Origin: a virus
Taxonomy: Duplodnaviria > Caudoviricetes
Strand: one strand, 5' to 3'
Length of the DNA: 64,000 nt
Virus record (IMG/VR): IMGVR_UViG_3300035208_003115
In this document: positions 16,852-38,378 of the stretch, piece after piece
Layout: each line of letters opens with the position of its first letter
How positions within the stretch are numbered: the stretch's first letter is position 1
Notes under the pieces: model-generated
Seen by the model: the letters and a program-made list of their open reading frames with translations, nothing else
Told to the model about the DNA's origin: nothing
Database searches by the model: none
Made by a program: the position numbers and the translations under genes

Positions 16852-17807
16852 TATCGATCTCCCAGATCGTGGTCTATCATCATTTGAATCAGTTTTTCAA
16901 ATGTGATAGTAGGTTTCCATCCTAGCAATTTTCTAGCATCTGAGGAGTCTCCACACAGAAGGTCTACTTCAGCCGGGCGAACAAAGCGATTATCCCGCCT
17001 TATGTATTCTCTCCAGTCTAAGCCCACATATCTAAATGCAATTTCAATTAGTTCTTGGACTGTATGGGTTTCACCCGTAGCGAATACCCATTCCCGTGGC
17101 TCATGGTGTTGCATCGCCATATACATACCTAGGGCATAGTCTTTTGAATAGCCCCAGTCTCTTTTGGCGTTAGTGTTTCCTAGGACCAGTTCTGTTTGTG
17201 CGCCATGCTTAATATTAGCGACGGCTTTAGTAATCTTTCGGGTAACAAAGTTCTCTCCTCGGCGAGGAGATTCATTATTAAAGCAGATGGCCGAGATACC
17301 GAAGAGATTATAGGATTCGCGATAGTTAATAGTAGTCCAGTGGCCGAATAACTTGGATATTCCGTAAGGACTCCTTGGATAGAATGGAGTCTTTTCGTTC
17401 TGGGGAGTTTCAGCTACTTTGCCAAACATCTCAGAAGTAGAAGCCGTAAGGAATTTTGACTTGAAGTCTGAGTTACGAATGGCCTCGAGTAGTCTAAGAA
17501 CTCCTAATCCTGAGATATCTGCAGTTGTAATAGGCTCATTGAAACTCACATGAACATGAGATTGAGCCCCTAGGTTATAGACCTCATGGGGCCTAATTGA
17601 TCTGAGAATTCTATCTAGGGAGGATTGATCCGTGAGATCTCCCTGGACAAGTTCTATGTTAGAAAGGATGGACTCTATTCTACTCGTATTGGGTGTAGAG
17701 GTGCGGCGCACGAGACCATATACTTTATATCCTTTTTCTAGTAGGACTTCAGCCAGGTATGAGCCTGTCTGACCGGTGATTCCGGTGATAAGAGCTTTCT
17801 GTTCCAT
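16851..17807 (-). CDS. gmd: GDP-mannose 4,6-dehydratase
   Basis: ALITGITGQTGSYLA, NLGAQSHVHVSF, STSEMFG, PRSPYGISK, ESPRRGENFVTRKIT, RDWG, RPAEVD. Confidence 0.97.
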   Translation of the reverse strand: MEQKALITGITGQTGSYLAEVLLEKGYKVYGLVRRTSTPNTSRIESILSNIELVQGDLTDQSSLDRILRSIRPHEVYNLGAQSHVHVSFNEPITTADISGLGVLRLLEAIRNSDFKSKFLTASTSEMFGKVAETPQNEKTPFYPRSPYGISKLFGHWTTINYRESYNLFGISAICFNNESPRRGENFVTRKITKAVANIKHGAQTELVLGNTNAKRDWGYSKDYALGMYMAMQHHEPREWVFATGETHTVQELIEIAFRYVGLDWREYIRRDNRFVRPAEVDLLCGDSSDARKLLGWKPTITFEKLIQMMIDHDLGDR

Positions 17808-19048
17808 TATACTTCCTCGGGTCTAATTCTTATGTTAGTTGTTTCAGTATCGATATTATCAAATAAGTTTTCCCACTTTTTAATAATTGGTGCCCAGTCG
17901 AACTTCTTGGCGAATTCTTGGGCATTACGTCCTAGCTCAGTCCGCATAGCTTTATTCATAGCTAGTTTATCCATTGTTTCTTTAAGATGTTTGACATCAA
18001 CGATAGCTCTTCGGATGTGAGAACCGGCTTCAACAAGAAATGACGCGACCTTAATTAGCCCCCCACCTTTTGATTGACCAATAAATTCTGGTCCAATAGT
18101 ATACGCCGGAACAATGTTTGGGATGCCCGCGGCCATTGACTCAATAATTGGTATACCGAATCCTTCACCCCAGGCAGTATTAACATGAACATCCATACAT
18201 CCGTAGATTAGACGAAGAACAGGAGGAGGGACTCCGCGGTTAGGATGGAGGTCGGGAGTCACATAAACCCTATCTGATATCCCGAATTCCAAACCCAGTC
18301 GGCTTAGTAACCACCCTTGATCTTGGTTGCAAGCATGAATTAGAAGTCTTGACTTAGGATGAGTCTTTATGTGCTCCGAGAACGCTTCATACAGGGCGGG
18401 GATATTTTTGCGAGGCTGGTTTCTTGCTACCATTCCGAATACTACTACATCATCAGATCCAAACATTTCTATTCTTTTTTGTGATCTAACTTCTTCCGGA
18501 AGGGGACTAGACCAAAGCCCAAAGTCAATTCCATGATATATCATTTCGATATCTCTATTGAGGGCCATTCCAGCAACTCGTTGACCGAATTGGCTAAAGG
18601 TTAATGGCGTGTCGATATATTGTAGGAAATTTTTCCACTTGTCGGGAACAGGCATTCCGTCGATAGGAACATAAGAAACCAAATGATGGTTTTTAAGATT
18701 GGGGTGCTCTAGAATCCAATCGACCATATAGATGTCCCCGAAGTAGACAACAATATCTGGCTTGAAGTCTTCGAGAATAGCATCTATAGTCTTTCCGCCA
18801 TTCTTATCTTTCATTGTCTTGTCTTCTTTAGAAAGACTAGTGTGATATAGCTTGAATGGGAAGTTTGAAGACCGAAGACCCTCATATGGATAGGTTGGTT
18901 CTTTGGCGGGAGGCTCGAACCACCCCTGGCATGCTATCTCATATTTTTTGGTAGCAGCCAGACGTAGTAAAATGTCGTGCGTAATTACTCCATAGCCAGT
19001 ATGAATGGATGGAGTTTGAGAACACCACAGAATTCTTTTTTTAGTCAT
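17807..19048 (-). CDS. Glycosyltransferase family 4
   Basis: P..HTGYG, YVPIDG, HGID, ARNQPRKN, GEGFGIPIIESMAAGIP. Confidence 0.9.
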   Translation of the reverse strand: MTKKRILWCSQTPSIHTGYGVITHDILLRLAATKKYEIACQGWFEPPAKEPTYPYEGLRSSNFPFKLYHTSLSKEDKTMKDKNGGKTIDAILEDFKPDIVVYFGDIYMVDWILEHPNLKNHHLVSYVPIDGMPVPDKWKNFLQYIDTPLTFSQFGQRVAGMALNRDIEMIYHGIDFGLWSSPLPEEVRSQKRIEMFGSDDVVVFGMVARNQPRKNIPALYEAFSEHIKTHPKSRLLIHACNQDQGWLLSRLGLEFGISDRVYVTPDLHPNRGVPPPVLRLIYGCMDVHVNTAWGEGFGIPIIESMAAGIPNIVPAYTIGPEFIGQSKGGGLIKVASFLVEAGSHIRRAIVDVKHLKETMDKLAMNKAMRTELGRNAQEFAKKFDWAPIIKKWENLFDNIDTETTNIRIRPEEV

Positions 19049-26141: not shown

Positions 26142-26561
26142 CTATTTAGATATTTGGCTGATTACTTCCATCACTTTTTCTGGGGAGATAAAGGCATCGG
26201 GGTTGTACGGTTCAGATTCCCACGTATCAAATTGATTCTTCCGCATATACATTCTACCCTTAATTAGATTGATATTCTCCTTGTGACCAAAAATAAGAGG
26301 ATCAGATGTCCCCCATAATACTATAGCTTTTACTTTAATATCCCAGCAAAAGTGTTGAAGAAAACTGTCACAACATATTACGTGTTTGGCTTCTTTAAGT
26401 AGCTTCTCCAGTTTATCTAGGGGCTCCTTGACTACTTCAACGACTTCGTAGTCCACAGAGAGAAGCTTGAATAGCTCCTCCCAGTAAGGGTATTCCTTAG
26501 CGCTATGATTTCCATTGCGCAGTGGCCGGACGCCCCTTGAGTAGACTACTAGAGGCTTCAT
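26142..26561 (-). CDS. GT9 C-terminal lobe (split glycosyltransferase)
   Basis: AKEYPYWEEL, VICCDSFLQH, AIVLWGTSDP. Confidence 0.75.
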   Translation of the reverse strand: MKPLVVYSRGVRPLRNGNHSAKEYPYWEELFKLLSVDYEVVEVVKEPLDKLEKLLKEAKHVICCDSFLQHFCWDIKVKAIVLWGTSDPLIFGHKENINLIKGRMYMRKNQFDTWESEPYNPDAFISPEKVMEVISQISK

Positions 26562-27556
26562 ATTTCTACCCCATAGAGTTCAGCATATGCGTACTTGATT
26601 TCTTTGTCTTTCCATCCCTTATCAATGCAGTATTTAAATATATTATGTCTATCGGGGTTACACAGCTTTTGACCTTCAGCGAGACTTATACAATTCTCTC
26701 CCGGGAATAGTTCCGGATAGCATACGGCCAATACTACGTCCTTATACTTTTCTTTTATCTTAGGCAGTATTGATCGGAAAACTATATGGTCTCCCATCCC
26801 CGAGTCTAGATAACAAATCTTGTGTCCTTCGTATTCTCGGAGTGTTTCCCTATAGGCTATTTCGTCTCGGTCCCAATCTTCTTTCTGTCCGGAAGCTCTA
26901 ATCCCTCCCGTAGAAGCTCTGAAGTGATATGTGACAGCCGCTGGATCAACTATCAGCTTATACCCCTTTCTATATATCCCATAGGTGTGAAGGGTCTCTT
27001 CCCGGTGAGCGACGCAGCTTAAGCTAAGATCGAACTCTTGTATTCCTTTACGATAGAGATATGAACTATATAAATGTTCTACTTCTTTAATATCTGAATT
27101 GGGCCAATAGAACCATTGGCAATTACCATTATCAATATTTTTAATTGTATTAGGAGGAAAGTCTTGTTTGATTGTCCCCGGCGGTATAACTAGTCCGGCT
27201 ACAGCACCAACGCCATTCAGCATACGTAACTCTAGTATTTGGAGAACGGTAGGTTCAGCTACCTCGTCATCATCTATTCTCCATACGAGGTCAGTTGCCT
27301 TATCCTGAATCATCTGGTGGCCCCAGTGTTGACCACGGCCCAACCCATAGATAACTTCGAACTCAATTCGCTTAGTGTTGATTAAATCAAATAGATGCTG
27401 ATAGATGGGAGTCTCTCGCATCTCTATACGCGTGGACGAATCGTCATAGATGATGATTTTATCTGGTGTTCGAGTCTGGTTAATGACAGACATTAAAGCC
27501 ATGGGAAGTTGGTCATATCTATCTTTAGTACAGATGTCTACAGTTATATGCGCCAT
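26558..27556 (-). CDS. GT2 glycosyltransferase fused to GT9-like N-terminal lobe
   Basis: ICTKDR, NQT..PD, YDDS, RIDDD, HREET; C-terminal SGMGDHIVF..ILPKIKEKY. Confidence 0.85.
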   Translation of the reverse strand: MAHITVDICTKDRYDQLPMALMSVINQTRTPDKIIIYDDSSTRIEMRETPIYQHLFDLINTKRIEFEVIYGLGRGQHWGHQMIQDKATDLVWRIDDDEVAEPTVLQILELRMLNGVGAVAGLVIPPGTIKQDFPPNTIKNIDNGNCQWFYWPNSDIKEVEHLYSSYLYRKGIQEFDLSLSCVAHREETLHTYGIYRKGYKLIVDPAAVTYHFRASTGGIRASGQKEDWDRDEIAYRETLREYEGHKICYLDSGMGDHIVFRSILPKIKEKYKDVVLAVCYPELFPGENCISLAEGQKLCNPDRHNIFKYCIDKGWKDKEIKYAYAELYGVEI

Positions 27557-29709
27557 TAGTTGTCCTTGTAGACATAATCGCTATACTTCGTTTCTAGATT
27601 GTCGAAGATAAAGCGAGGAACTGATTCTTCCGTTATTGCCACGAACTGATACTCTATCGGCCTATCATAAAGATCTTTGCCAGCTTTGACTATTTCCTGT
27701 ATCCTATTCCTATCTTTGAACTTGTCTAGATTAAGATCTTGGTGGGCTGTAGATTCAATCTTACGAATGATTCCCTCCACTCCTCCAAAATAGGAGAAGT
27801 GCCAGCCTCCGTTAGAAAGTGTTTGTATATTTTTATCATAATCTTGAAAGTAGCGAGCATCGCAAGGGGTCATTGTTTTCATTATACCCCAAGGCAAGAT
27901 TCGAGCCCAATCCCACTTATCTTTGGCCTGGAGGTTTAGGTTATAGTAAAAAAGATCCATTGAGAATACATTAATACCAGTAGCAGGATTATACCTGCGG
28001 ACAGCATCTGCTTTTGGAATTTCGTCGGCATCACTTATTATAATAATATCCTCGTCTTTGCACCTATCGGCAAGAGCGGTTTTAAGGTGATCTCTTTGCC
28101 GACGTTCTATATACCAGGACTTATCAGTTAAATTTTTCATCTTATCAAGTTCGGGATAATTATCTAGAACAACGTGGATGATTTTATTCAGGTATTTTTT
28201 AAATCGCTCTTCATTAAGTTTAAAGTATAGAGGCTTAGGAATAACTCCGTGAGTTAGTGTAGCTTCACAAATGACGAAGTAGTCTACTACATCCCATAAC
28301 TCTTCTAGCCTTGCTTCTAGAAGATCGAATTCATTATAAAATGGGAAACAATCGTATATCTTTCCCTTATTCGTAGAGATGGATTTGATATCTCTCTTAT
28401 TGCAAAACCAGATTGTTGTAAATTCTCCAACATAGAAGAGGTTGAATTTCTCCTCGACAGCCCTCTGCACTCCCTCCCATGCTCCTAAATCATGACCGCA
28501 GAAGAGGGTATCGTCTCCGACCAATCGAGACCAGGCATCTATATCTGCGCACACTCCCTCGTACGTGTGATCGGCATCTATAAAAATCATATCGGGCTTA
28601 ACGCCCTTTTCGAGCAGTAAGTCGGAAGCGTTCTTTGAGTTCATTCGTAGCGGAATGATCTTACCTTGCTGGATAAGATCTAGGTTGTTCTGCATAAACT
28701 CATAGAAGGCATGATCTCCATCTTTCCATCTAGCCGAGACATGATTGGTATCTTGCTCAATTGGTGTTCCTGCCCACGTGTCAACGCAGTAGATAACTCC
28801 GCCTTCCATTAGATTATCGCCTAGAACTCTAGAGGATTTGCCATGCCAGGAGCCTATTTCTACAATAACCTTTCTTTTCCTAGCTTCTTTGCCGAGCCAG
28901 TATAACTCTCCGTCATTCATAAAGCCGTCGCATTGGGACGCCCGGGATATATCAACCGGATTATAGCGTTGTTTTAGTATCGCATCATTGCGAGCCATTA
29001 GTTCGGCCCATCCTGGATGGTTCTTAAATGTTTCATTGCCAGCATGATACATCGGATAATCACTAACCATGCGTTTCTGATTTTGATCTAAATATTCAAA
29101 TGCCGTTGGGAGAGATACTGTTTTGAAGCCTGCGTCCTGGGCCCGAGCACAGTAGTCCACATCTTCATCGAAGCCTGGTGAGAATATTTCATCTAGATAA
29201 CCAATAGTATCAATTACCTTACGTTTAATACATGCACAGAAGAAGATTAGGAATTGACGGTTAGCCGGCGCGTTATAAGAAAGCATGGGCCCAGTGATGC
29301 CTACGGATTCATCCGTTTCAAAAGGCTTTAGTAAATCGTTGAGCCATTTATTGTGGCCCTGGCCTAGGTCGAGGATTTGCACATCATTATTAAGGGGGAT
29401 GATATACTCGCCCGTAGCTATCTTCATGCCCTCGTTGGTAGCCCTAGTATAGCCGAGTCCTTCGTCGAACCAGAGTAGTTTGAATGGAGAAGGGCTTATA
29501 GCGTGTCCAGAGTCATCGGGGTCATCGATGCCCCGTAACCGATATTCTAGACTCTCAACATATTCTCGGGTGTTATCAGTGCAACCATTGGCGACAATAA
29601 TTACTTCGACATCGGTAAGGTCTGTATATTTTATGATGGATTCTAAGCAGGGCTTAAGTAGATCTGAGCAGTGGTTAAAACTAGGAATCACTATGCTAAT
29701 TTTTGGCAT
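27556..29709 (-). CDS. GT2 - methyltransferase - GT17 tri-domain protein
   Basis: ISIVIPSFN..LNND..EDVD; VEIGSWHGKS..FIDADH.Y..GHD; YDCF.FYNE.DLLE.RL.EL...SDADEIP...GGWHFSY. Start re-called to MPKISIV (29709). Confidence 0.9.
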   Translation of the reverse strand: MPKISIVIPSFNHCSDLLKPCLESIIKYTDLTDVEVIIVANGCTDNTREYVESLEYRLRGIDDPDDSGHAISPSPFKLLWFDEGLGYTRATNEGMKIATGEYIIPLNNDVQILDLGQGHNKWLNDLLKPFETDESVGITGPMLSYNAPANRQFLIFFCACIKRKVIDTIGYLDEIFSPGFDEDVDYCARAQDAGFKTVSLPTAFEYLDQNQKRMVSDYPMYHAGNETFKNHPGWAELMARNDAILKQRYNPVDISRASQCDGFMNDGELYWLGKEARKRKVIVEIGSWHGKSSRVLGDNLMEGGVIYCVDTWAGTPIEQDTNHVSARWKDGDHAFYEFMQNNLDLIQQGKIIPLRMNSKNASDLLLEKGVKPDMIFIDADHTYEGVCADIDAWSRLVGDDTLFCGHDLGAWEGVQRAVEEKFNLFYVGEFTTIWFCNKRDIKSISTNKGKIYDCFPFYNEFDLLEARLEELWDVVDYFVICEATLTHGVIPKPLYFKLNEERFKKYLNKIIHVVLDNYPELDKMKNLTDKSWYIERRQRDHLKTALADRCKDEDIIIISDADEIPKADAVRRYNPATGINVFSMDLFYYNLNLQAKDKWDWARILPWGIMKTMTPCDARYFQDYDKNIQTLSNGGWHFSYFGGVEGIIRKIESTAHQDLNLDKFKDRNRIQEIVKAGKDLYDRPIEYQFVAITEESVPRFIFDNLETKYSDYVYKDN

Positions 29710-30238
29710 AATAGAAGTATACCTTTCTAACCCAAAGTTTAAATGCTTCTTGAGTCCTTGAGCCCTTTGCCCAGTTGCAACTGCCACAACATGCCACAAC
29801 ATTTCCGACTATATATCCTTTAGAGCTATCTATTCTATCAATACCGCTACCAATAAATGTGCCGTTTTTGATGCTATTCTTATAGATATTGCTAGGAGGT
29901 TGATTACAATAGAAGCAGTTTTGAGAGACTAGTGCTCTAAAATCACTCTTTGTTAGTGAGAACTCTATTCCTCTTGTTCGTGCAGCGCACTTAATCTTGC
30001 TCAAGGCCTGATTAAAGGCTGCTTCTCCTAAAGGAAGTTTTCTATTAGAACCTTCGTATTTCAAACACCCACACGACTTGGTATGGCCTCTATTTATCTC
30101 GTGCGAATTGGTTATTCTTATTTTTCCACAGTCGCACTTACACTCCCATAAAGCAAAGCCATTATAATTTCCTGGTAGTCTTTTGACTATTGTTAATTTA
30201 GAGATCTTACGTCCAGTCAGGTCTTTGAATCTAGGCAT
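29696..30238 (-). mobile_element. Free-standing HNH homing endonuclease gene
   Basis: DLTG...LT...W.C.CDCG...SCGC N-domain; CFYC..GIDRIDSSKGY..GNVV.CC..CN.AK nuclease domain; flanked by duplicated target-gene starts. Confidence 0.85.
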
Positions 30239-30240
30239 GT

Positions 30241-30297
30241 TTAGGATCTTACCGGACAGTGATTATAGGTGGGAATGACAATAGAGCATTTGGGCAA
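30241..30297 (-). pseudogene. Remnant original 5' end of the GT2 gene (18-aa mini-ORF)
   Basis: GGAGG-N7-TTG, MPKCSIVIPTYNHCPVRS*, versus current MPKISIVIPSFNHCSDLL. Confidence 0.8.
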
Positions 30298-30458
30298 GAC
30301 GATTCCTCCCCCCGCATAGATAAAGCATATAGACAAATTGATACAATATTTATGTAGGGTTAAATCTATATAATTATAGTGCAACTATTAGGCTTATTTC
30401 CGATACTGTAGTTACTACATACGCCAGAAGTTGAGTAGATCGAATGGTCATTTATCCC

Positions 30459-33400
30459 TTAGTACGAATACCTTACCTCCATTCCCCCAATGTATAGTGA
30501 TTTGGCTGAATCCGCCAGTGTTCTAACCATCGCCGATAGCCCCCAATCCACGTCGTTACTTGGGTAGGTAGCTGTTACTCTCGTAGGGGTTCCATCGTCC
30601 AGTCTGAACCATACACTGCTCCCCGGATGTATGTCTTTAACTATCTCTAGTCTGTGCTCTCCCGTGTCTATGGCTACGCCCGTATCAGTTACTGTAGGAG
30701 ATCCTGTCGCGTTATCGTTAACAAATTTAAAATTAGAATCGCTGGCCGATGTGTCAGCCCTCAACGCCATGTAATCTAATGAAGGCGTTGCGCTCGCCAT
30801 TGGCGTACTTGGAAACATCCCTGCCCAAAATCTTATGTTTGTCGTGCTACCGAGCTTGAACTTAATCGCAACCCTCCACGTGTAGGATGAATTGCAGGAA
30901 TCAAATCCTGTTTCGTAACTTCCTGCATCGTCATTAGTCGTTGCTGGCGTAGTATATAGCACGAAAGATCCCTCGGACGCCGAGTTAGCTTGCCCCACTG
31001 AGTTAACGTCTGTTAAGTCTACACCCGACGGTACCATGGCTCCGTTACTCGGATTCGCAAACCAAGCTTGAAACCCGCCCAGACCTCCTGAAGCCGTCCC
31101 CACACCTTGCCCCGGGAAAAATGCTTTATTTTGCCGTGGGGTTGCTTCTTTAGCATAAACATTCTCTGGAAGCTTAGCCGTCATGGAGCAATTCCCCATG
31201 GTAACTATTTGGCCTCCATTACCCGTTATAGCATACTCCGCTGAACCCGTTAAAAATACGCAGCTTATCATAACTCCCGTACTTCCTGTATAGCCCACGC
31301 ATCTGTCTGAACTGCTGCTTGCTACGAAGTTGCATCCATAGGCCGAGCCATTTCCCCAAATATTGACGCACGACCCGCTACTTCCAGACTGCTCTATCGT
31401 GCAAGAAGCAAAAAATCCGCCATTTACCGCGTTTATAGGAACTCCCCCGTTATAAGTATGGTCTGACTTTATATACGAGTTAATGAATGTGCCGCCGTTT
31501 ATGTTAATAAACGTGTAGCTTTTTGACCAGAACTCGCAACCTTCTATATAACAGCCTGAATTCGCAGCATTTGCCGCGTACGATCCTCCTGCCCCTCCGT
31601 CTACTGTACAATTCTTCATAAACCCGTATATATCGTTTATCATGCGCCCGTCGTACCAATGCATCGTTGTCGAGTGCAAATAGCAGTTAAACATTTTTCC
31701 GTACATGTTCACCATCATGTACTGAGCATGCTCTGCGGATGTTGAGGAAATATCGCAATCCCTCAAGGTCATATTTGTTGTTACATCTCCTGTGCATCGT
31801 CTCGTAGATGTAAGTCGGCAGTGAGTTAATACTACATCCGCACATGTCGTGCAACTAAAAGCGCAATCCGTCAGTCCGGATGTCCCTGTCTGATCTATCG
31901 TTAGATTTGTAAACTTATTCTCCGCCGCAGCCTGAGTTATAGATACCGTAGGGGTAGACGAGGATGTTATTATAACATCGCCTTGTCCTCCGCCGATAAA
32001 GTCTATATACCTAGTCTCGTCCGCGCTCGTTACGGCTATCTGTTCCGCGTAAACTCCGGGCATAATAATTACTAGTCCGTGCTGAGTTGAGGACAAAGCA
32101 AATGTGGTTGTTAAATAGGTCATTGCTGCGTTAATAGTTAGGAATGGACCCGTTGGGTTTCCGTCGTTTCCGTCCTTGCACACATACGCCGTAGCAGCGA
32201 AAGATGAACCCGATCCCGCTGCTCCTGAATAACCACTGTAACCCGATGTTCCGGCGCCTGAGTAACCACTGTAACCGGAAGTTCCTGCCCCCGAGTAACC
32301 CGAATAGCCACTTACACCCGTTAACGGAACTCCCCCTATTAAAAGAGAAGTAACACTTCCGTTTCCGATAGAAACCTGATTCGACGCTGTTGCCTCTGCC
32401 CCGTAACCGATGCACGTAACGTTAGAATACTCATACTGTGGTGTTAGCGTGTGCCCTGTCCCCGACCCTGCATCGGATATCTGAACTCCGTGATAGTCAG
32501 TGCCCGCTACATTTACATAGAAAGACACCGTATTAGCGTCTACTATATATACTTGATATACTTGACCGTCCGAAAGACTGGGTATAGACGCGGTTCCTTC
32601 CGTATACTTAACTAGTTTCCAAGTATCGTTTGATCCAAAACCATGTCCAGTTATGGTTACATGACTCAGCGTTGTATTTATATCTGTATTATCAAAAGTG
32701 ACGTCCCCGGAGGTATTGGGATTAAACGAATTGTTTATTTCGTGCCCTATAAAAGTATTGTATCCTCCCTGATTATAGCTTCCCGTGTTGTTTCCTATTA
32801 GCACGTTGTTGCTGCCGCAATTTGTATATCCGGTAGAAACCCCAAGCATACTATTCGACGATCCCGTATTATTTCTTCCTACATAGGATCCAAAAAAGCT
32901 AGCGGAGCCCCCCATGCTGCTTTCGCCTGCATACGACCCTATCATTGTGGAATATCCGCCGTTGTTGTGATACCCGGCGTGAATTCCCGCTAAAACTGAA
33001 AAGTAGCCTGTATTTTCATACCCAGTAGAAGGGCCTATGTGTACTGCGGCGCCCCCTGTATTATTGTGGCCCGCGAACACTCCGAACAATGTCGGCTCAC
33101 CACCAGTATTGTTGTATCCTGTTTGGAACCCAAACATTGCAGCGTAGTGCTCTGTATTTCCGTGACCCGCTCCGCTTCCAAAGAAGCAAGACTGGTACCC
33201 GGAGTTCCCGTATGCTGCGTTGTCTCCAAATGCCGTTACCTGCGCTCCTACATTATCGTAGGCGGCTTGGTACCCCACCGCTGTGAGAAAATTCCCTTCA
33301 CTATTCATCCCAGACTGATATCCAACGGCTATGGGATAGCTCCCTTTAACATTAGAGCCTGCTCCGTTGCCAAATGAAATACCATCTGTTGGTTGCCAGC

Positions 33401-36400
33401 TGCCATCCCAATAGTGGGTTATTCTTCTTGCTATGGAGGCGCTGTCTATAGAGTCTAGAATTAGGTCTTGGTATTTGTTATAGCCCGTTGATTCTTCGGG
33501 AGAACCTAGTTCTAGACTGTGGCTTCCTAAGTTAACATCATCTGTCGCTCCAGTATATGGAACATACAAACTTAAATCCCCGGCGTAGCCAGAGTACCCA
33601 GAAATCCCGGAACCGCTATATCCAGAATATCCACTTAAGCCGGAACCGGAATAACCACTCCTGCCAGAGTAGCCAGTATAGCCGCTCTTACCCGAAATAC
33701 CCGTATAGCCTGATGCTCCTGCAATCCCGCTTGTTCCCGTATATCCCGAAGCACCTTGTGCGCCACTGGCTCCAGTATATCCTGAACGACCCGATGCGCC
33801 AGTATAACCCGATGCTCCTGCAATCCCGCTTGTTCCCGTATATCCACTGGCTCCTACGACTCCACTTGCCCCACTCCATCCAGATTTGCCACTGGCTCCG
33901 GTGTAACCACTTTGTCCTGATGCTCCACTATAACCGGATGCGCCTATGGCCCCAGATGCTCCAGTATAGCCAGACCATCCGGATGAACCACTTGCACCTG
34001 TGTAACCCGATATTCCACTAGTTCCAGTGTACCCTGATTTCCCACTAGTGCCTGATACCCCGGTGTATCCACTAGTTCCACTAACTCCAGTATAACCAGA
34101 TTTGCCAGATACTCCTGTGTAGCCAGAGAGACCACTTGTTCCCGAAGCGCCGGTGTAACCACTTGTGCCACTAGCTCCCGTGTAACCAGAGAGACCACTA
34201 GTGCCAGACGTTCCCGAAGTTCCTTGAGAGCCAACGTTTCCAGTTCGTGCGAAATATAGACGGATATTATTTAGGTTTACCGGGGCTGTTCCAAAGGCAT
34301 GTCCACTATTTACTCGTAGTCGGATGTATGTAGTATAGGCTGTTACTGCTCCCACATTAAAATAAGAGAAGTTCTGGGTCGCGGAATCTATGTCTGTAAT
34401 ATATAAGTACCCTTTTACGCTGCTGGAGCTTGCTCCCCAATTATTGAAAGCATCACGATAATTTATGCCGTCTGCTCCTACGGAATTTATATAGACATAT
34501 GTTACTGAGGCGATGTCTGCGTCGTTAAAGCGAACTGAGCCATCGTTTGAAATACCGGCACTGGTGGTAGAATCAAAGTAGGCGGGAAATCCCGTGGTAT
34601 AGCCGCTTCTGCCAGAAATACCGGTATAACCTGAAACCCCTGATCCTGAAAATCCGGATGTTCCACTTATTCCCGTGTACCCTGATAGACCTGAAGCTCC
34701 GCTAGAACCGGTATATCCGCTTGTTCCTGATGCACCAGTATGGCCAGAAGTTCCTGAGGCTCCTGAAATACCCGTATAACCCGATTTACCAGAAACACCT
34801 GTGTAGCCAGACAAACCGCTCGTACCTGATGCTCCCGTATATCCTGAAGTCCCGGAAGCACCTGTATGTCCAGACCAGCCCGACCAACCGGATGTCCCAG
34901 TATAACCTGATCGTCCTGAAGTTCCACTTGCTCCAGTGTATCCAGACTTGCCGGATACGCCACTCGTTCCGGTATATCCACTCCATCCACTGGTTCCACT
35001 GGTTCCGGTATATCCTGAAATTCCTGAGCCTGAGTGCCCAGAAGTTCCCGATGTTCCTGTAAATCCACTGAGGCCAGAAACACCCGTGTATCCACTCTGG
35101 CCGGAGGTTCCAGACACTCCCGTATATCCGGACCAGCCGGAAGTACCTGATACACCTGTATATCCTGAAGTTCCGGTGTAACCTGATTTTCCAGATACTC
35201 CAGTGTAACCAGAAATACCTGAACCAGAGAAACCACTGACTCCAGAAGTTCCTGACCATCCCGAGGTTCCACTTGCTCCAGTATAACCACTAGTTCCACT
35301 AGCCCCTGTGTATCCGCTTTCTCCGCTTGCTCCTGAAGTACCAGTATATCCCGAACGTCCACTAACCCCTGTGTATCCGCTCGTGCCTGGCTCTCCGCTT
35401 GCTCCCGATGTTCCCGTGTGTCCAGATCGACCACTGGTTCCAGATGCACCGGTGTAGCCAGACTGCCCCGAAGTGCCAGTATATCCGGATAGTCCACTTA
35501 CTCCAGTATAGCCTGAAGCTCCTGAGGCTCCAGTGTATCCACTTGCCCCCACTGCTCCGGATGCTCCCGTCCATCCTGATTTACCAGATACTCCCGTATG
35601 GCCAGAAGTACCGCTAGTTCCTGACGCTCCTGTGTAACCAGAAGTTCCTGAGGCTCCGGTATAGCCAGATGCTCCAGCTGTTCCAGATGCGCCGGTATAA
35701 CCACTCGCGCCAGCTATCCCCGATACTCCAGTATATCCTGATTGACCAGAGGTTCCGCTAATTCCTGTATAGCCCGATTTACCTGATGTTCCTGTATATC
35801 CAGATATCCCGGAACCAGAAAAACCCGATGTTCCAGATACTCCAGTATAGCCGGAGATGCCCGAGCCCGAGAAGCCACTCTTTCCAGAAACTCCAGTCCA
35901 TCCAGACGTTCCCGAAGTACCCGAAGTTCCAGTATAGCCAGACGTTCCGCTAATGCCGGTGTATCCAGACTGGCCTGATGTACCGGTATAGCCGGATGTT
36001 CCAGAAGCACCTGTGTATCCACTTCTGCCTGAGGTTCCTGTATACCCAGAACGTCCACTAACTCCAGTGTATCCCGAGCGACCAGAGACACCGGTGTAAC
36101 CACTTACGCCAGATGCGCCACTATAGCCTGAAGTTCCTAATAGCGTAGACGCTGCTGCCCAATAGCCTACTGTCCCATTACTAGCCAATACCATTCCATT
36201 ATAGCCAACGGGGGTACTAGGGACGACACTAGCCTGGGCTTGTGTTAGGTGAAAATACTCCCCCGCAGTTCCGCCCTGTAGGCCCCCTAGGTTATTGTGA
36301 GAGGTGGCGGCAGAGGTTGAGAAGGTATTAGAAAAAGCAGAATCAATAGCGATAAATGTCGGGTCACCGTTCTTAAAGGTAGACCGACCTATTAGTTTAA

Positions 36401-38378
36401 AGTGAGCATATATATTAAGTGGTAATGTAGGGGGAACCGAACCGAGTGCAGCTTCTGCCGCAGAGGGATAGGAGTTGCGCCCATAAACCATAGCGAGATA
36501 GCCTGTATCACTTAGATACCACCACAAATTGGCATACTTATTAGGAAGTAAGTTTTGAAGTGTACCTGATCCGTTATCATATTGGGCATTAGGCCACTGT
36601 GTAACGTCTTCAACTTCGGTAAAGCCGGTTCCTCCATCTCTATACCAGACAGAGAATGTGTTAGCAATCGTAGGAGGGCCACCCACTGAAGTATCTATGG
36701 GAGAGATTATAAATTTAGTAGCTCGATCCCAGAGAGCTCCACCTGATAGAAGTATGTTTCGTGTTCCTGTTTCTCCTAGAATTAGGCCGCCGAGTCTTTC
36801 GTCTCGAGTTAGAGGGAAAGTATTATAGAATCTTTGCATAATCCCGCCGACTGCATCTTGAATACGCCGGGGATTATTAGAGATATAGAGTTCGTCGTCC
36901 ATTCTTGTAACATAACCAAGAGGGAAAATATCCTGATAGGTAATCTGGGTTGGAACCGAATAGTCGGTCGGGCCTGATCCCTCGAACAAAACAATTTCGG
37001 GATCGCCATCATTATAATCAACAGCAACCCATGTGACTCTCTGGTCTGTTAGTTCTGAAGAGGTGATTCCGTCCCAATTAGCGAATACAAGAGGGCTGGT
37101 ATCCTGGTCGTTAATGGCGATGGCCCCCGCACCAGAAGCGATAGCAATAGTCTGATTCCCTGCATCGGTTATTTCTCCACCACTTATCATTCCCGCACTA
37201 TAAGTATTAAACCAATCCATTAGGGTATTGCGTTCACTATTACTCGTATGGGCCAGGTTAACATTTGCAGAGCTAAGAGGAGTCGTGGGAATGCCGGCTA
37301 TATAGATAGAGCCATCAACCGCTGACTCGACTACATACGCTATGGTTTTTTGCAGATGGGGGGACAAAGGTAAGTCCCCCGTTAGTGCTCCCGGGGTTGC
37401 CCCAGATAAGTACATACGTGAGTTTGTCGGCCACGCACTAGTATCATAGCCATGTACAATTCCGAAAGTTGTGACAAAACCTTTTTCACCTACCGCAATA
37501 TCTTGAGTAGCAATACCCAAAATTCGGGCCTCAATAATCGAATCTGCGATAGCTTTTCTTACTAACTGAAAGTGGCCCGATACTCCAGAGGTATAGACAA
37601 CATCTCCATCCGAAATGGCCTCATCAGCTACAACCCGGATATAGTTTTCTTGTCCTATTTGTAGGGTTGGTCCGCCAGGCTCATCTAGAGCCAGGGTTTG
37701 GTGCTCAGAGTCCCAGTAGATTCTACCCGGGACACCACTTGTCCCCACTTGAGGAGATTGGTTAAAGATAATTCTATCAACAGTTAGAAGATTGTCTCCC
37801 AAATCAACATCTTGGGAAGCACCTGTATAGGGGATATAAATAGATGCTATCTCGCCAGACGAGAGGGCTCCTACTTGGTCCGCTGTTACCTCATGCGGGT
37901 TATCGGTATCTGTCGTGTGTTCGGTATAGGTGTCGGTTGTTATGACCGGATTATTAATCGTAGGAGGATAGGCCGCGTGAGATATGGCAAGCCATTCATC
38001 TAGGCTCAAATGGTAGAACTGGTCTATATCTGGCCAGGCTCCACCTTGTTTATTTTGCAGGTCATTATGATCGTGAGTATGCAGGTCTGTATTGCTTCCA
38101 TCTACGAGAGGAGTAAGACTTATGTCCCCGGTTGGGAGGGAAATAAAGAGGTCTTCAGCATATAGGCTATGGTCGCCCAGATTAACATCATTAAGAGCGC
38201 CAACATATGGAACATAGATGTCTTGAATTTCACCGGATGTGAGAGCCCCAATTTGTTCGGTCGTGACATTATGAGGGTTATCGAAGTCATTGATATGACC
38301 CGATAACTCAGCTTGCAATTCCGCGATGTCCTCAGGGGTTGTATCTGGGACGATAAGCGGGATCCACTCAGACGACAT
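30459..38378 (-). CDS. Giant tail fibre/adhesin with Gly-X-Ser/Thr collagen, YadA-like repeats and beta-helix
   Basis: NPHxVT.EQ.GA x2, Y.PY.GA..DV.LG x3, three GX(S/T) blocks, 16-aa repeats, C-terminal pectate-lyase-like pattern. Confidence 0.88.
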   Translation of the reverse strand: MSSEWIPLIVPDTTPEDIAELQAELSGHINDFDNPHNVTTEQIGALTSGEIQDIYVPYVGALNDVNLGDHSLYAEDLFISLPTGDISLTPLVDGSNTDLHTHDHNDLQNKQGGAWPDIDQFYHLSLDEWLAISHAAYPPTINNPVITTDTYTEHTTDTDNPHEVTADQVGALSSGEIASIYIPYTGASQDVDLGDNLLTVDRIIFNQSPQVGTSGVPGRIYWDSEHQTLALDEPGGPTLQIGQENYIRVVADEAISDGDVVYTSGVSGHFQLVRKAIADSIIEARILGIATQDIAVGEKGFVTTFGIVHGYDTSAWPTNSRMYLSGATPGALTGDLPLSPHLQKTIAYVVESAVDGSIYIAGIPTTPLSSANVNLAHTSNSERNTLMDWFNTYSAGMISGGEITDAGNQTIAIASGAGAIAINDQDTSPLVFANWDGITSSELTDQRVTWVAVDYNDGDPEIVLFEGSGPTDYSVPTQITYQDIFPLGYVTRMDDELYISNNPRRIQDAVGGIMQRFYNTFPLTRDERLGGLILGETGTRNILLSGGALWDRATKFIISPIDTSVGGPPTIANTFSVWYRDGGTGFTEVEDVTQWPNAQYDNGSGTLQNLLPNKYANLWWYLSDTGYLAMVYGRNSYPSAAEAALGSVPPTLPLNIYAHFKLIGRSTFKNGDPTFIAIDSAFSNTFSTSAATSHNNLGGLQGGTAGEYFHLTQAQASVVPSTPVGYNGMVLASNGTVGYWAAASTLLGTSGYSGASGVSGYTGVSGRSGYTGVSGRSGYTGTSGRSGYTGASGTSGYTGTSGQSGYTGISGTSGYTGTSGTSGTSGWTGVSGKSGFSGSGISGYTGVSGTSGFSGSGISGYTGTSGKSGYTGISGTSGQSGYTGVSGIAGASGYTGASGTAGASGYTGASGTSGYTGASGTSGTSGHTGVSGKSGWTGASGAVGASGYTGASGASGYTGVSGLSGYTGTSGQSGYTGASGTSGRSGHTGTSGASGEPGTSGYTGVSGRSGYTGTSGASGESGYTGASGTSGYTGASGTSGWSGTSGVSGFSGSGISGYTGVSGKSGYTGTSGYTGVSGTSGWSGYTGVSGTSGQSGYTGVSGLSGFTGTSGTSGHSGSGISGYTGTSGTSGWSGYTGTSGVSGKSGYTGASGTSGRSGYTGTSGWSGWSGHTGASGTSGYTGASGTSGLSGYTGVSGKSGYTGISGASGTSGHTGASGTSGYTGSSGASGLSGYTGISGTSGFSGSGVSGYTGISGRSGYTTGFPAYFDSTTSAGISNDGSVRFNDADIASVTYVYINSVGADGINYRDAFNNWGASSSSVKGYLYITDIDSATQNFSYFNVGAVTAYTTYIRLRVNSGHAFGTAPVNLNNIRLYFARTGNVGSQGTSGTSGTSGLSGYTGASGTSGYTGASGTSGLSGYTGVSGKSGYTGVSGTSGYTGVSGTSGKSGYTGTSGISGYTGASGSSGWSGYTGASGAIGASGYSGASGQSGYTGASGKSGWSGASGVVGASGYTGTSGIAGASGYTGASGRSGYTGASGAQGASGYTGTSGIAGASGYTGISGKSGYTGYSGRSGYSGSGLSGYSGYSGSGISGYSGYAGDLSLYVPYTGATDDVNLGSHSLELGSPEESTGYNKYQDLILDSIDSASIARRITHYWDGSWQPTDGISFGNGAGSNVKGSYPIAVGYQSGMNSEGNFLTAVGYQAAYDNVGAQVTAFGDNAAYGNSGYQSCFFGSGAGHGNTEHYAAMFGFQTGYNNTGGEPTLFGVFAGHNNTGGAAVHIGPSTGYENTGYFSVLAGIHAGYHNNGGYSTMIGSYAGESSMGGSASFFGSYVGRNNTGSSNSMLGVSTGYTNCGSNNVLIGNNTGSYNQGGYNTFIGHEINNSFNPNTSGDVTFDNTDINTTLSHVTITGHGFGSNDTWKLVKYTEGTASIPSLSDGQVYQVYIVDANTVSFYVNVAGTDYHGVQISDAGSGTGHTLTPQYEYSNVTCIGYGAEATASNQVSIGNGSVTSLLIGGVPLTGVSGYSGYSGAGTSGYSGYSGAGTSGYSGYSGAAGSGSSFAATAYVCKDGNDGNPTGPFLTINAAMTYLTTTFALSSTQHGLVIIMPGVYAEQIAVTSADETRYIDFIGGGQGDVIITSSSTPTVSITQAAAENKFTNLTIDQTGTSGLTDCAFSCTTCADVVLTHCRLTSTRRCTGDVTTNMTLRDCDISSTSAEHAQYMMVNMYGKMFNCYLHSTTMHWYDGRMINDIYGFMKNCTVDGGAGGSYAANAANSGCYIEGCEFWSKSYTFININGGTFINSYIKSDHTYNGGVPINAVNGGFFASCTIEQSGSSGSCVNIWGNGSAYGCNFVASSSSDRCVGYTGSTGVMISCVFLTGSAEYAITGNGGQIVTMGNCSMTAKLPENVYAKEATPRQNKAFFPGQGVGTASGGLGGFQAWFANPSNGAMVPSGVDLTDVNSVGQANSASEGSFVLYTTPATTNDDAGSYETGFDSCNSSYTWRVAIKFKLGSTTNIRFWAGMFPSTPMASATPSLDYMALRADTSASDSNFKFVNDNATGSPTVTDTGVAIDTGEHRLEIVKDIHPGSSVWFRLDDGTPTRVTATYPSNDVDWGLSAMVRTLADSAKSLYIGGMEVRYSY
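32209..32318 (-). repeat. Collagen-like block 3 (GYS/GAG)
   Basis: GVSGYSGYSGAGTSGYSGYSGAGTSGYSGYSGAAGSG. Confidence 0.85.
32745..33383 (-). repeat. About 13 tandem 16-aa YadA-head-like repeats
   Basis: Units such as GYQSGMNSEGNFLTAV and GSYVGRNNTGSSNSML. Confidence 0.8.
33579..34232 (-). repeat. Collagen-like block 2 (about 218 aa)
   Basis: Gly every third residue, Y position mostly S/T; exact 35-nt duplication at 33712-33746 and 33811-33845. Confidence 0.92.
34596..36137 (-). repeat. Collagen-like block 1 (about 514 aa)
   Basis: (GYT-GxS-GxS[-GxS])n with stereotyped GSG interruptions. Confidence 0.92.

Follow-up and report, generated by a model that had tools for sequence, protein, structure and literature searches.

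A free-standing homing-type HNH nuclease cassette has probably been inserted, together with a replacement 5′ end, into a glycosyltransferase gene of a tailed phage (Duplodnaviria; Caudoviricetes). The affected gene, which encodes a fusion of GT2, methyltransferase and GT17 domains, is located in a 64,000-nt stretch of the IMG/VR record IMGVR_UViG_3300035208_003115 (this whole stretch is referred to as the window in the following). Upstream of the nuclease gene, the native start of the GT2 gene survives as the beginning of a short open reading frame (ORF), and the end of the nuclease gene overlaps a second, differently spelled start, which is fused to the body of the glycosyltransferase gene. 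In the closest relatives, which are free of the HNH gene, the upstream version is found as a single copy and in continuity with the gene body.

Anatomy of the interrupted GT2 gene

All GT2, HNH and leader features are encoded on the minus strand and are described here in the order of transcription. The native 5′ untranslated region of the GT2 gene (30298–30343) is collinear with positions 48–92 of L108, an HNH-less relative, in which this sequence stands directly upstream of the GT2 ATG. It includes the Shine–Dalgarno (SD) sequence GGAGG (30309–30305), which is placed 7 nt ahead of the leader start codon and ranks among the strongest ribosome-binding sites of the window. The native codons 1–14 of the gene follow (copy A, MPKCSIVIPTYNHC, 30256–30297), severed from the gene body and identical to the gene start of L108 and L001 in 14 of 14 residues and 36 of 42 nt. 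By direct reading of the sequence, copy A is continued by PVRS and a TAA codon (30243–30241) and in this way forms an 18-codon leader ORF, MPKCSIVIPTYNHCPVRS (30241–30297). The initial annotation of the locus had described GGAGG followed by an ORF that ends in PVRS and stops 2 nt ahead of the HNH ATG, and exactly this arrangement is present, with the dinucleotide AC separating the TAA from the HNH ATG at 30238; to be corrected is the start codon of the leader, which is TTG (30297–30295) and not ATG.

Copy A and the HNH gene are joined by a 17-nt filler, CCGGTAAGATCCTAAAC (30239–30255), to which nothing corresponds in L108 (codon 15, GAC, comes next there) and which forms the left end of the foreign tract. 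The HNH gene itself (29696–30238, with its TAG at 29698–29696) encodes a protein of 180 aa, a PacI-like His-Me finger whose N-terminus carries a CxCxC...SCGC zinc module. Within its end lies the ATG (29709–29707) of the GT2–methyltransferase–GT17 fusion gene (27556–29709; Pfam PF00535, PF13578 and PF04724), which begins MPKISIVIPSFNHC, is read in a different frame and is intact over 717 aa. Codons 1–18 of this gene (copy B, MPKISIVIPSFNHCSDLL, 29656–29709) represent the putative replacement start and the right end of the foreign tract. That the HNH end overlaps a recoded copy sharing 11 of 14 residues with the upstream one, as had been noted before, could be confirmed: the overlap amounts to 14 nt, copies A and B agree at 26 of 42 nt, and 8 of the 11 identical residues are specified by different codons.

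The similarity of the two copies is beyond chance. A loose GT2 N-terminal motif has four matches in the six frames of the window, two of which are copies A and B, and a protein-level scan for repeats flanking nuclease genes gave five matches at this locus compared with none in a reversed-sequence control. The comparison with relatives, which is described below, is the stronger argument than either of these scans.

The initiation signals of the locus are unevenly distributed. Most genes of the window carry GGAG or AGGA 5–9 nt upstream of their start codon, and the exceptions mostly abut or overlap the preceding gene. The HNH start has neither motif and follows, at a distance of 2 nt, the stop of a leader ORF equipped with one of the best sites of the window, and the GT2 start, embedded in the HNH gene, is preceded by AAGG at 12 nt only. 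Ribosomes might be relayed from the old initiation region via the leader to the HNH gene and from there to GT2. Such coupling fits this survey of ribosome-binding sites as well as the description of free-standing endonucleases in phage T4, half of which have SD-less starts that abut or overlap a neighboring ORF, a feature interpreted as coupling or short-range re-initiation keeping nuclease levels low (PMC2988022).

A scan for promoters and terminators returned four promoter-like sites, with 2.9 expected in shuffled sequence, and no terminators. A promoter-like TAGTCA-17-TATAAT pair (10/12) is located at 30161–30189 (minus strand) within the 5′ part of the HNH ORF, in a scan whose site count was no higher than that of shuffled sequence; a transcript from this site would carry GT2 without a translatable HNH gene.

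HNH-less relatives and the borders of the foreign tract

A search with the GT2 fusion protein yielded 72 loci (27 viral and 45 metagenome loci), among which there are two close lineages only. In the first of them, represented by L001 and L108, no HNH gene is present and the GT2 protein is 83% identical to that of the window over residues 1–715. The L108 gene starts with 14 codons (ATG CCT AAA TGC TCT ATT GTT ATT CCC ACT TAT AAC CAC TGC) that encode MPKCSIVIPTYNHC in a single copy fused to the GT2 body, and L001 has the same start; the initial annotation had predicted precisely such an HNH-less relative, with the upstream version joined to GT2. In a local alignment, the leader of L108, its GGGAG ribosome-binding site and codons 1–14 (positions 48–133) match window positions 30343–30256 over 86 collinear nt, and the match stops exactly past CACTG in codons 13–14. 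Copy A is the orthologous gene start. The 92 nt upstream of the L108 gene contain a promoter-like pair, TTGACA...TATAAT, as well as stop codons in every frame, and no nuclease gene enters the GT2 start of this locus.

The second lineage, L002 and L109, shows 61% amino acid identity. The order of fibre gene and GT2 is kept, and a 67-aa ORF stands where the HNH gene would be. The gene start of L002 reads MKVSVVIPSFNHCSDLLQ, and the spelling PSFNHCSDLL is shared between L002/L109 and copy B. Relatives of the HNH protein were found in none of the 72 GT2 loci and neither in the 149-kb nor in the 106-kb record to which L001 and L002 belong. The nuclease gene consequently shows the sporadic presence among otherwise syntenic relatives that characterizes free-standing homing genes. 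Further searches added no closer comparator: the whole locus had no match in the DNA of cultured phages, no GT2 relative closer than the protein of L001 was present in a large protein database, and the exact junction sequence had no match in IMG/VR.

The extent of the foreign sequence was delimited by codon alignment with L108. Over the entire gene, the nucleotide identity is 75% (704 sliding windows of 14 codons; mean 0.758, sd 0.076). Copy A matches L108 at 36 of 42 nt (86%) and codons 1–14 of copy B at 30 of 42 nt (71%), and the following codons 15–18 of the window gene differ from L108 at 6 of 12 nt. Directly abutting the foreign tract, codons 19–32 (29614–29655) agree at 41 of 42 nt, synonymous sites included, which is the highest value of all 704 sliding windows; this peak could result from a recent exchange or from a constraint on the nucleotide level, such as a nuclease recognition site. 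Sites were counted as informative if the window matched just one of L108 and L002; of 12 such sites in codons 1–18, 9 are L002-like and 3 L108-like, compared with 167:415 over the gene (for this stretch, which was specified beforehand, Fisher p = 0.001). This clustering is supportive of a different origin and not decisive alone. The 9:3 distribution and the abrupt return to 41/42 at codon 19 together delineate a flanking donor tract, as left by co-conversion.

The locus hence reads as a succession of three blocks: the first is L108-like and ends with codon 14 of copy A, the second comprises about 600 nt of foreign sequence (30255–29656), and the third, from codon 19 onward, is L108-like again. 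The foreign middle block consists of the 17-nt filler, the HNH gene and GT2 codons 1–18 of another lineage; the native codons 15–18 are missing from the window locus, and no convincing source of the filler was found in the L002 intergenic region. This scar, comprising the old copy, the junction and the new copy, probably locates the break and the crossover to within a few codons. Of the replacement N-terminus proposed in the initial annotation, the core can be retained, as copy B is fused to the gene, L002-like and out of place; its extent has to be revised from 14 to about 18 codons.

With regard to the genomic context, a collagen-like but proline-poor fibre gene of 2639 aa (30459–38378) precedes the locus, and 161 nt separate its end from the start of the leader ORF. 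At least three glycosyltransferase genes are found downstream of it (17807–19048, 26558–27556 and 27556–29709, minus strand), and tandem GT2 paralogues, two or three of them, occur in the relatives L004–L009 and L111–L119 and have the N-terminal motif in common. The combination of tandem GT2 genes with a fibre gene suggests a module for diversifying fibre glycosylation. Both HNH-less relatives feature a consensus TTGACA-N-TATAAT promoter right after the fibre gene (L108:1–92; L002:4712–4760), whereas the promoter scan of window positions 30298–30458 revealed no equivalent, the sole candidate being a TTGCAC abutting TATAAT. The invaded operon may thus be transcribed by read-through from the fibre gene.

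The nuclease and its family

The HNH protein has no match in Pfam-A (E ≤ 0.01), and it is matched by HNH and endonuclease VII families of the PHROG database with E = 1e-21 to 1e-14. An alignment of 42 homologues revealed an invariant N-terminal CxCxCG...SCGC module and the C-terminal pattern C108-x2-C111 ... G132-I-D134-R135 ... Y142 ... N146 ... C151-x2-C154-N155 ... K158. Within this pattern, C108-x2-C111 and C151-x2-C154-N155 show little or no variation and represent two CxxC pairs of zinc ligands and a metal-binding Asn, aligning with the CxxC...CxxCN of the restriction enzyme PacI. A profile built from the alignment matched PacI (PDB 3ldy) with E = 6.9e-8, including the DR...GY...N...CxxCN..K of that enzyme. 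In line with this, the AlphaFold2 model (predicted local distance difference test score, pLDDT, of 91.8) retrieved PacI (3ldy_A) as the top and only significant match in a Foldseek search of the PDB (E = 6.9e-4, probability 1.00), with further HNH nucleases ranking below it. Profile and model agree in assigning a beta-beta-alpha-metal fold to the protein.

At the position where HNH proteins carry the DH motif, the His is lacking and the invariant D134-R135 is found, similar to the DR of PacI. PacI is an active His-Me finger enzyme without a catalytic His, which instead uses a Tyr of the omega loop as general base (PMC5714182), and the absence of the His is therefore no evidence of inactivity. 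The invariant Y142 is aligned with the Tyr of the PacI ‘GY’ motif, which may or may not be the catalytic Tyr of PacI. The protein is a PacI-like His-Me finger that contains all residues invariant in its family and is predicted to be active.

PacI (PDB 3ldy and 3m7k; His-Me finger group 20, PMC5714182) is the closest solved relative of the nuclease domain, and both share the arrangement CxxC...G-x-DR-x-D...GY...N...CxxCN..K, the missing catalytic His and the conserved Tyr position. The two also differ: PacI is a bacterial restriction enzyme, whereas the phage protein carries the additional CxCxC...SCGC module, behaves as a mobile phage gene and is about 20% identical to it, and the link between the phage family and PacI runs through the profile search only.

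The family comprises 258 clusters in the database (E ≤ 1e-10) and is present in 257 records of cultured phages infecting many hosts, e.g., lactococcal phages of the 936 group, a scattered distribution of the kind expected of a mobile nuclease gene. An identical HNH protein (P0001) is encoded on a second contig, too. The closest homologue, P0002 from ENA, is 57% identical, and the N-terminal extension of P0241, a longer member of its cluster, shows no relation to GT2. P0002 ends in ...RYAQG compared with ...YYAKN in the window protein, and a choice of TAT-GCC codons at its end would create an overlapping ATG-CC start (MP...) there as well. HNH genes of this lineage may thus habitually overlap the start of an MPK-type gene.

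Origin of the insertion, precedents and implications

The locus could have arisen by a break near codons 14–19 of an HNH-less, L108-like allele, resection of the ends with loss of codons 15–18, and repair from an HNH-bearing donor whose nuclease gene overlaps the start of its GT2 gene, by which a cassette of about 600 nt (30255–29656, minus strand) would have been copied into the 5′ end of the gene. The right-hand crossover would lie at about codon 19 and the left-hand join just past codon 14, the latter being either illegitimate or, if the donor already had the same layout, homologous. With a donor that contained a remnant of the old start, both joins could be homologous, and the unit of copy A, HNH gene and copy B would be able to spread like an intron without splicing. 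As the gene would be rebuilt with the N-terminus of the donor, the element would require no intron or intein. What would persist of the native start, namely its ribosome-binding site and codons 1–14, is a leader ORF from which ribosomes probably pass to the SD-less start of the HNH gene and subsequently to that of GT2. The insertion interrupts the sequence between codons 14 and 15 in copy A, and copy B differs from the naive allele at 12 of 42 nt before and 6 of 12 nt past codon 14; both features would probably protect the carrier from its own enzyme.

Several observations weigh against this proposal. The comparison rests on two HNH-less lineages, each sampled twice from related samples, and the comparators, all of them HNH-less, include neither an HNH-bearing donor nor a second HNH-bearing relative; the sequence available upstream of the gene is limited to 46 nt in L001 and 92 nt in L108. 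Moreover, an equally strong L002-like cluster appeared somewhere in the gene in 23% of permutations, so that significance is confined to the pre-specified stretch, and the 71% identity between copy B and L108 is by itself no outlier (rank 218 of 704), the argument being the contrast with the neighboring stretches.

Alternatively, the first 14–18 codons could have been duplicated locally when the HNH gene was inserted, with copy B diverging in place, e.g., by selection for escape from cleavage or against recombination of the two repeats, and without any foreign 5′ end. Near-identical peptides with different codons at 8 of 11 shared residues are indeed the pattern of selection for recoding, and a donor with the start of copy B was found neither among the 72 GT2 loci nor in the large protein database. 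This scenario is unlikely, however, in view of the 12 changes in 42 nt that copy B would need, plus 6 in the next 12 nt, while relative to L108 there is one change in the adjacent 42 nt and there are six in copy A, and in view of the 9 of 12 informative states of copy B that already exist in the L002 lineage. An ordinary mosaic joint between two recombined phages, with the HNH gene as a non-mobile passenger or domesticated nuclease that did not make the break, appears quite improbable to us. Nuclease genes are common at the borders of genetic exchange between phages (PMC10448857), and further L002-like patches occur elsewhere in the GT2 gene; yet the foreign tract measures just about 600 nt, is flanked by L108-like sequence on both sides and contains little beyond the nuclease gene and the displaced piece of its target, and for this reason has the footprint of a nuclease-centered cassette.

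There is very little to recommend the view that copy A is unrelated to the GT2 gene, i.e., the remnant of a different GT2 paralogue or an ORF that arose by chance. SIVIPTYN is a generic N-terminal motif of GT2 proteins and several GT2 genes are frequent at neighboring loci in relatives, but the match to L108 spans 86 collinear nt, extends beyond the motif into the untranslated leader and the SD sequence, and includes 14 of 14 residues. Similarly, an HNH gene residing in a self-splicing intron, with copy A as exon 1 being spliced to the gene body, is scarcely credible. Phage group I introns often host HNH genes, and copy A is found at a plausible exon-1 position. On the other hand, no Rfam family was detected at E ≤ 10 on either strand of 29300–30600, and the leader RNA folds no better than its shuffles (z = +1.1). 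The non-coding room of the insert is confined to the 17-nt filler before the HNH ORF, the stretch past the HNH gene being the translated copy B, which keeps its own ATG and the conserved peptide; copy A is ended by an in-frame TAA. Introns of group I or II were rejected on these grounds, namely no match to a ribozyme core, 17 non-coding nt and no excess folding, and an intein was rejected because the TAA and a frame shift divide copy A from the HNH gene and because HNH and GT2 are in different frames. The claim of the initial annotation that the element sits in the gene without splicing agrees with this lack of any intron signal and of space for a ribozyme, and the transcript is probably not spliced.

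The insertion of a cassette with its own replacement end has its nearest counterpart in fungal mitochondria, where mobile ORFs (mORFs) encoding endonucleases generate hybrid genes. In Allomyces macrogynus, a foreign C-terminal piece was fused to atp6 (Paquin et al., 1994, as cited in PMC3630166), and in Glomus atp6, atp9, cox2 and nad3 the mobile endonuclease ORF brings a foreign C-terminal piece and leaves the native C-terminus downstream, with native ends being 91–98% and inserted ends 64–81% identical to relatives (PMC3630166). The phage locus shares with these hybrids an endonuclease ORF inside a gene, a foreign, diverged end fused to the gene and an adjacent native remnant that is closer to the relatives, and it shows the same split in identity (86% for the native copy A and 71% for the inserted copy B, the latter being fused to the gene). 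In contrast to the fungal cases, it is the 5′ and not the 3′ end that is replaced, as in a mirror image, the host is a phage instead of an organelle, an HNH/PacI-like nuclease takes the place of the mORF endonucleases, and the displaced piece keeps its ribosome-binding site and start, positioned as a possible leader ORF for the nuclease. Because of the mirrored geometry, at the 5′ end, and the different nuclease family, the resemblance of the phage locus to the mORF hybrids is one of design rather than of ancestry.

Among phages, in which genes for free-standing homing endonucleases are normally intergenic, the Seg and Mob proteins of T4-like phages are encoded by such genes, which spread by intronless homing with co-conversion of the flanks (PMC2988022). 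Like these, the HNH gene lies outside of any intron or intein, is sporadic, is accompanied by a short flanking foreign tract, lacks a ribosome-binding site of its own and abuts or overlaps a neighboring ORF, as do 6 of 12 T4 genes; unlike the intergenic T4 genes, it interrupts a coding sequence, for which a spare gene start makes up, and duplicated target ends are not mentioned in the review on T4 free-standing endonucleases (PMC2988022). In the Aeromonas phage Aeh1, mobE splits nrdA into two working polypeptides that reassemble (PMC3045599). Here too, a free-standing HNH gene is found within a phage coding gene without an intron and with gene function retained, but NrdA is made in two polypeptides, whereas GT2 stays in one piece with its start replaced and a cut-off piece of 14 codons. 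In the literature, for which our coverage is incomplete, we found no phage precedent for a nuclease cassette that replaces or duplicates a gene end. What is new in the present case is consequently that the host is a phage, that a 5′ end is replaced and that the old start is retained as a potential leader; the design itself is known from fungal mitochondria.

A scan for recurrence covered 37 distinct loci with relatives of the window HNH protein, one of which (L062:1998–3798) shows the same geometry at a 3′ end, where either copy of the gene end may be the native one. Its HNH protein (266 aa, 28% identity to that of the window) possesses the same N-terminal CxCxC...SCGC module. The order at this locus is a 181-aa gene ending in ...PRMPMYFSGKELREKVLQIAKEVFAT, an antisense ORF of 70 aa, the HNH gene, a fragment ending in ...PKMPMYFAGKELRDKVVAIARDIFNS and a stop codon, and the next conserved gene; the two copies of the last 28 codons of the 181-aa gene are identical at 53 of 87 nt (61%), and about 20 relatives have one C-terminus and are HNH-free at that place. 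As the GT2 locus at a 5′ end and L062 at a 3′ end both point in this direction, a general mode of ‘break-and-replace’ homing is conceivable, although we regard it as tentative and rather doubtful at present. HNH cassettes of phages would carry a spare, differently spelled end of the gene that they cut, which would allow them to reside in conserved coding (or tRNA) sequence with neither intron nor intein, and a displaced start could be exapted as a leader that meters translation of the nuclease and passes ribosomes on to the rebuilt gene.

The usual view is that homing endonuclease genes can spare their target gene only when they reside in an intron, in an intein or between genes. The GT2 locus would represent a fourth solution in a phage, in which a replacement for the displaced piece of the gene is carried along. 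Its scar offers a testable target site for a widespread, uncharacterized family of PacI-like phage nucleases that lacks a Pfam model. For genome annotation, short leader ORFs and oddly diverged gene starts beside HNH genes can be insertion scars. Finally, the horizontal replacement of gene ends may be possible in units of about 50 nt.

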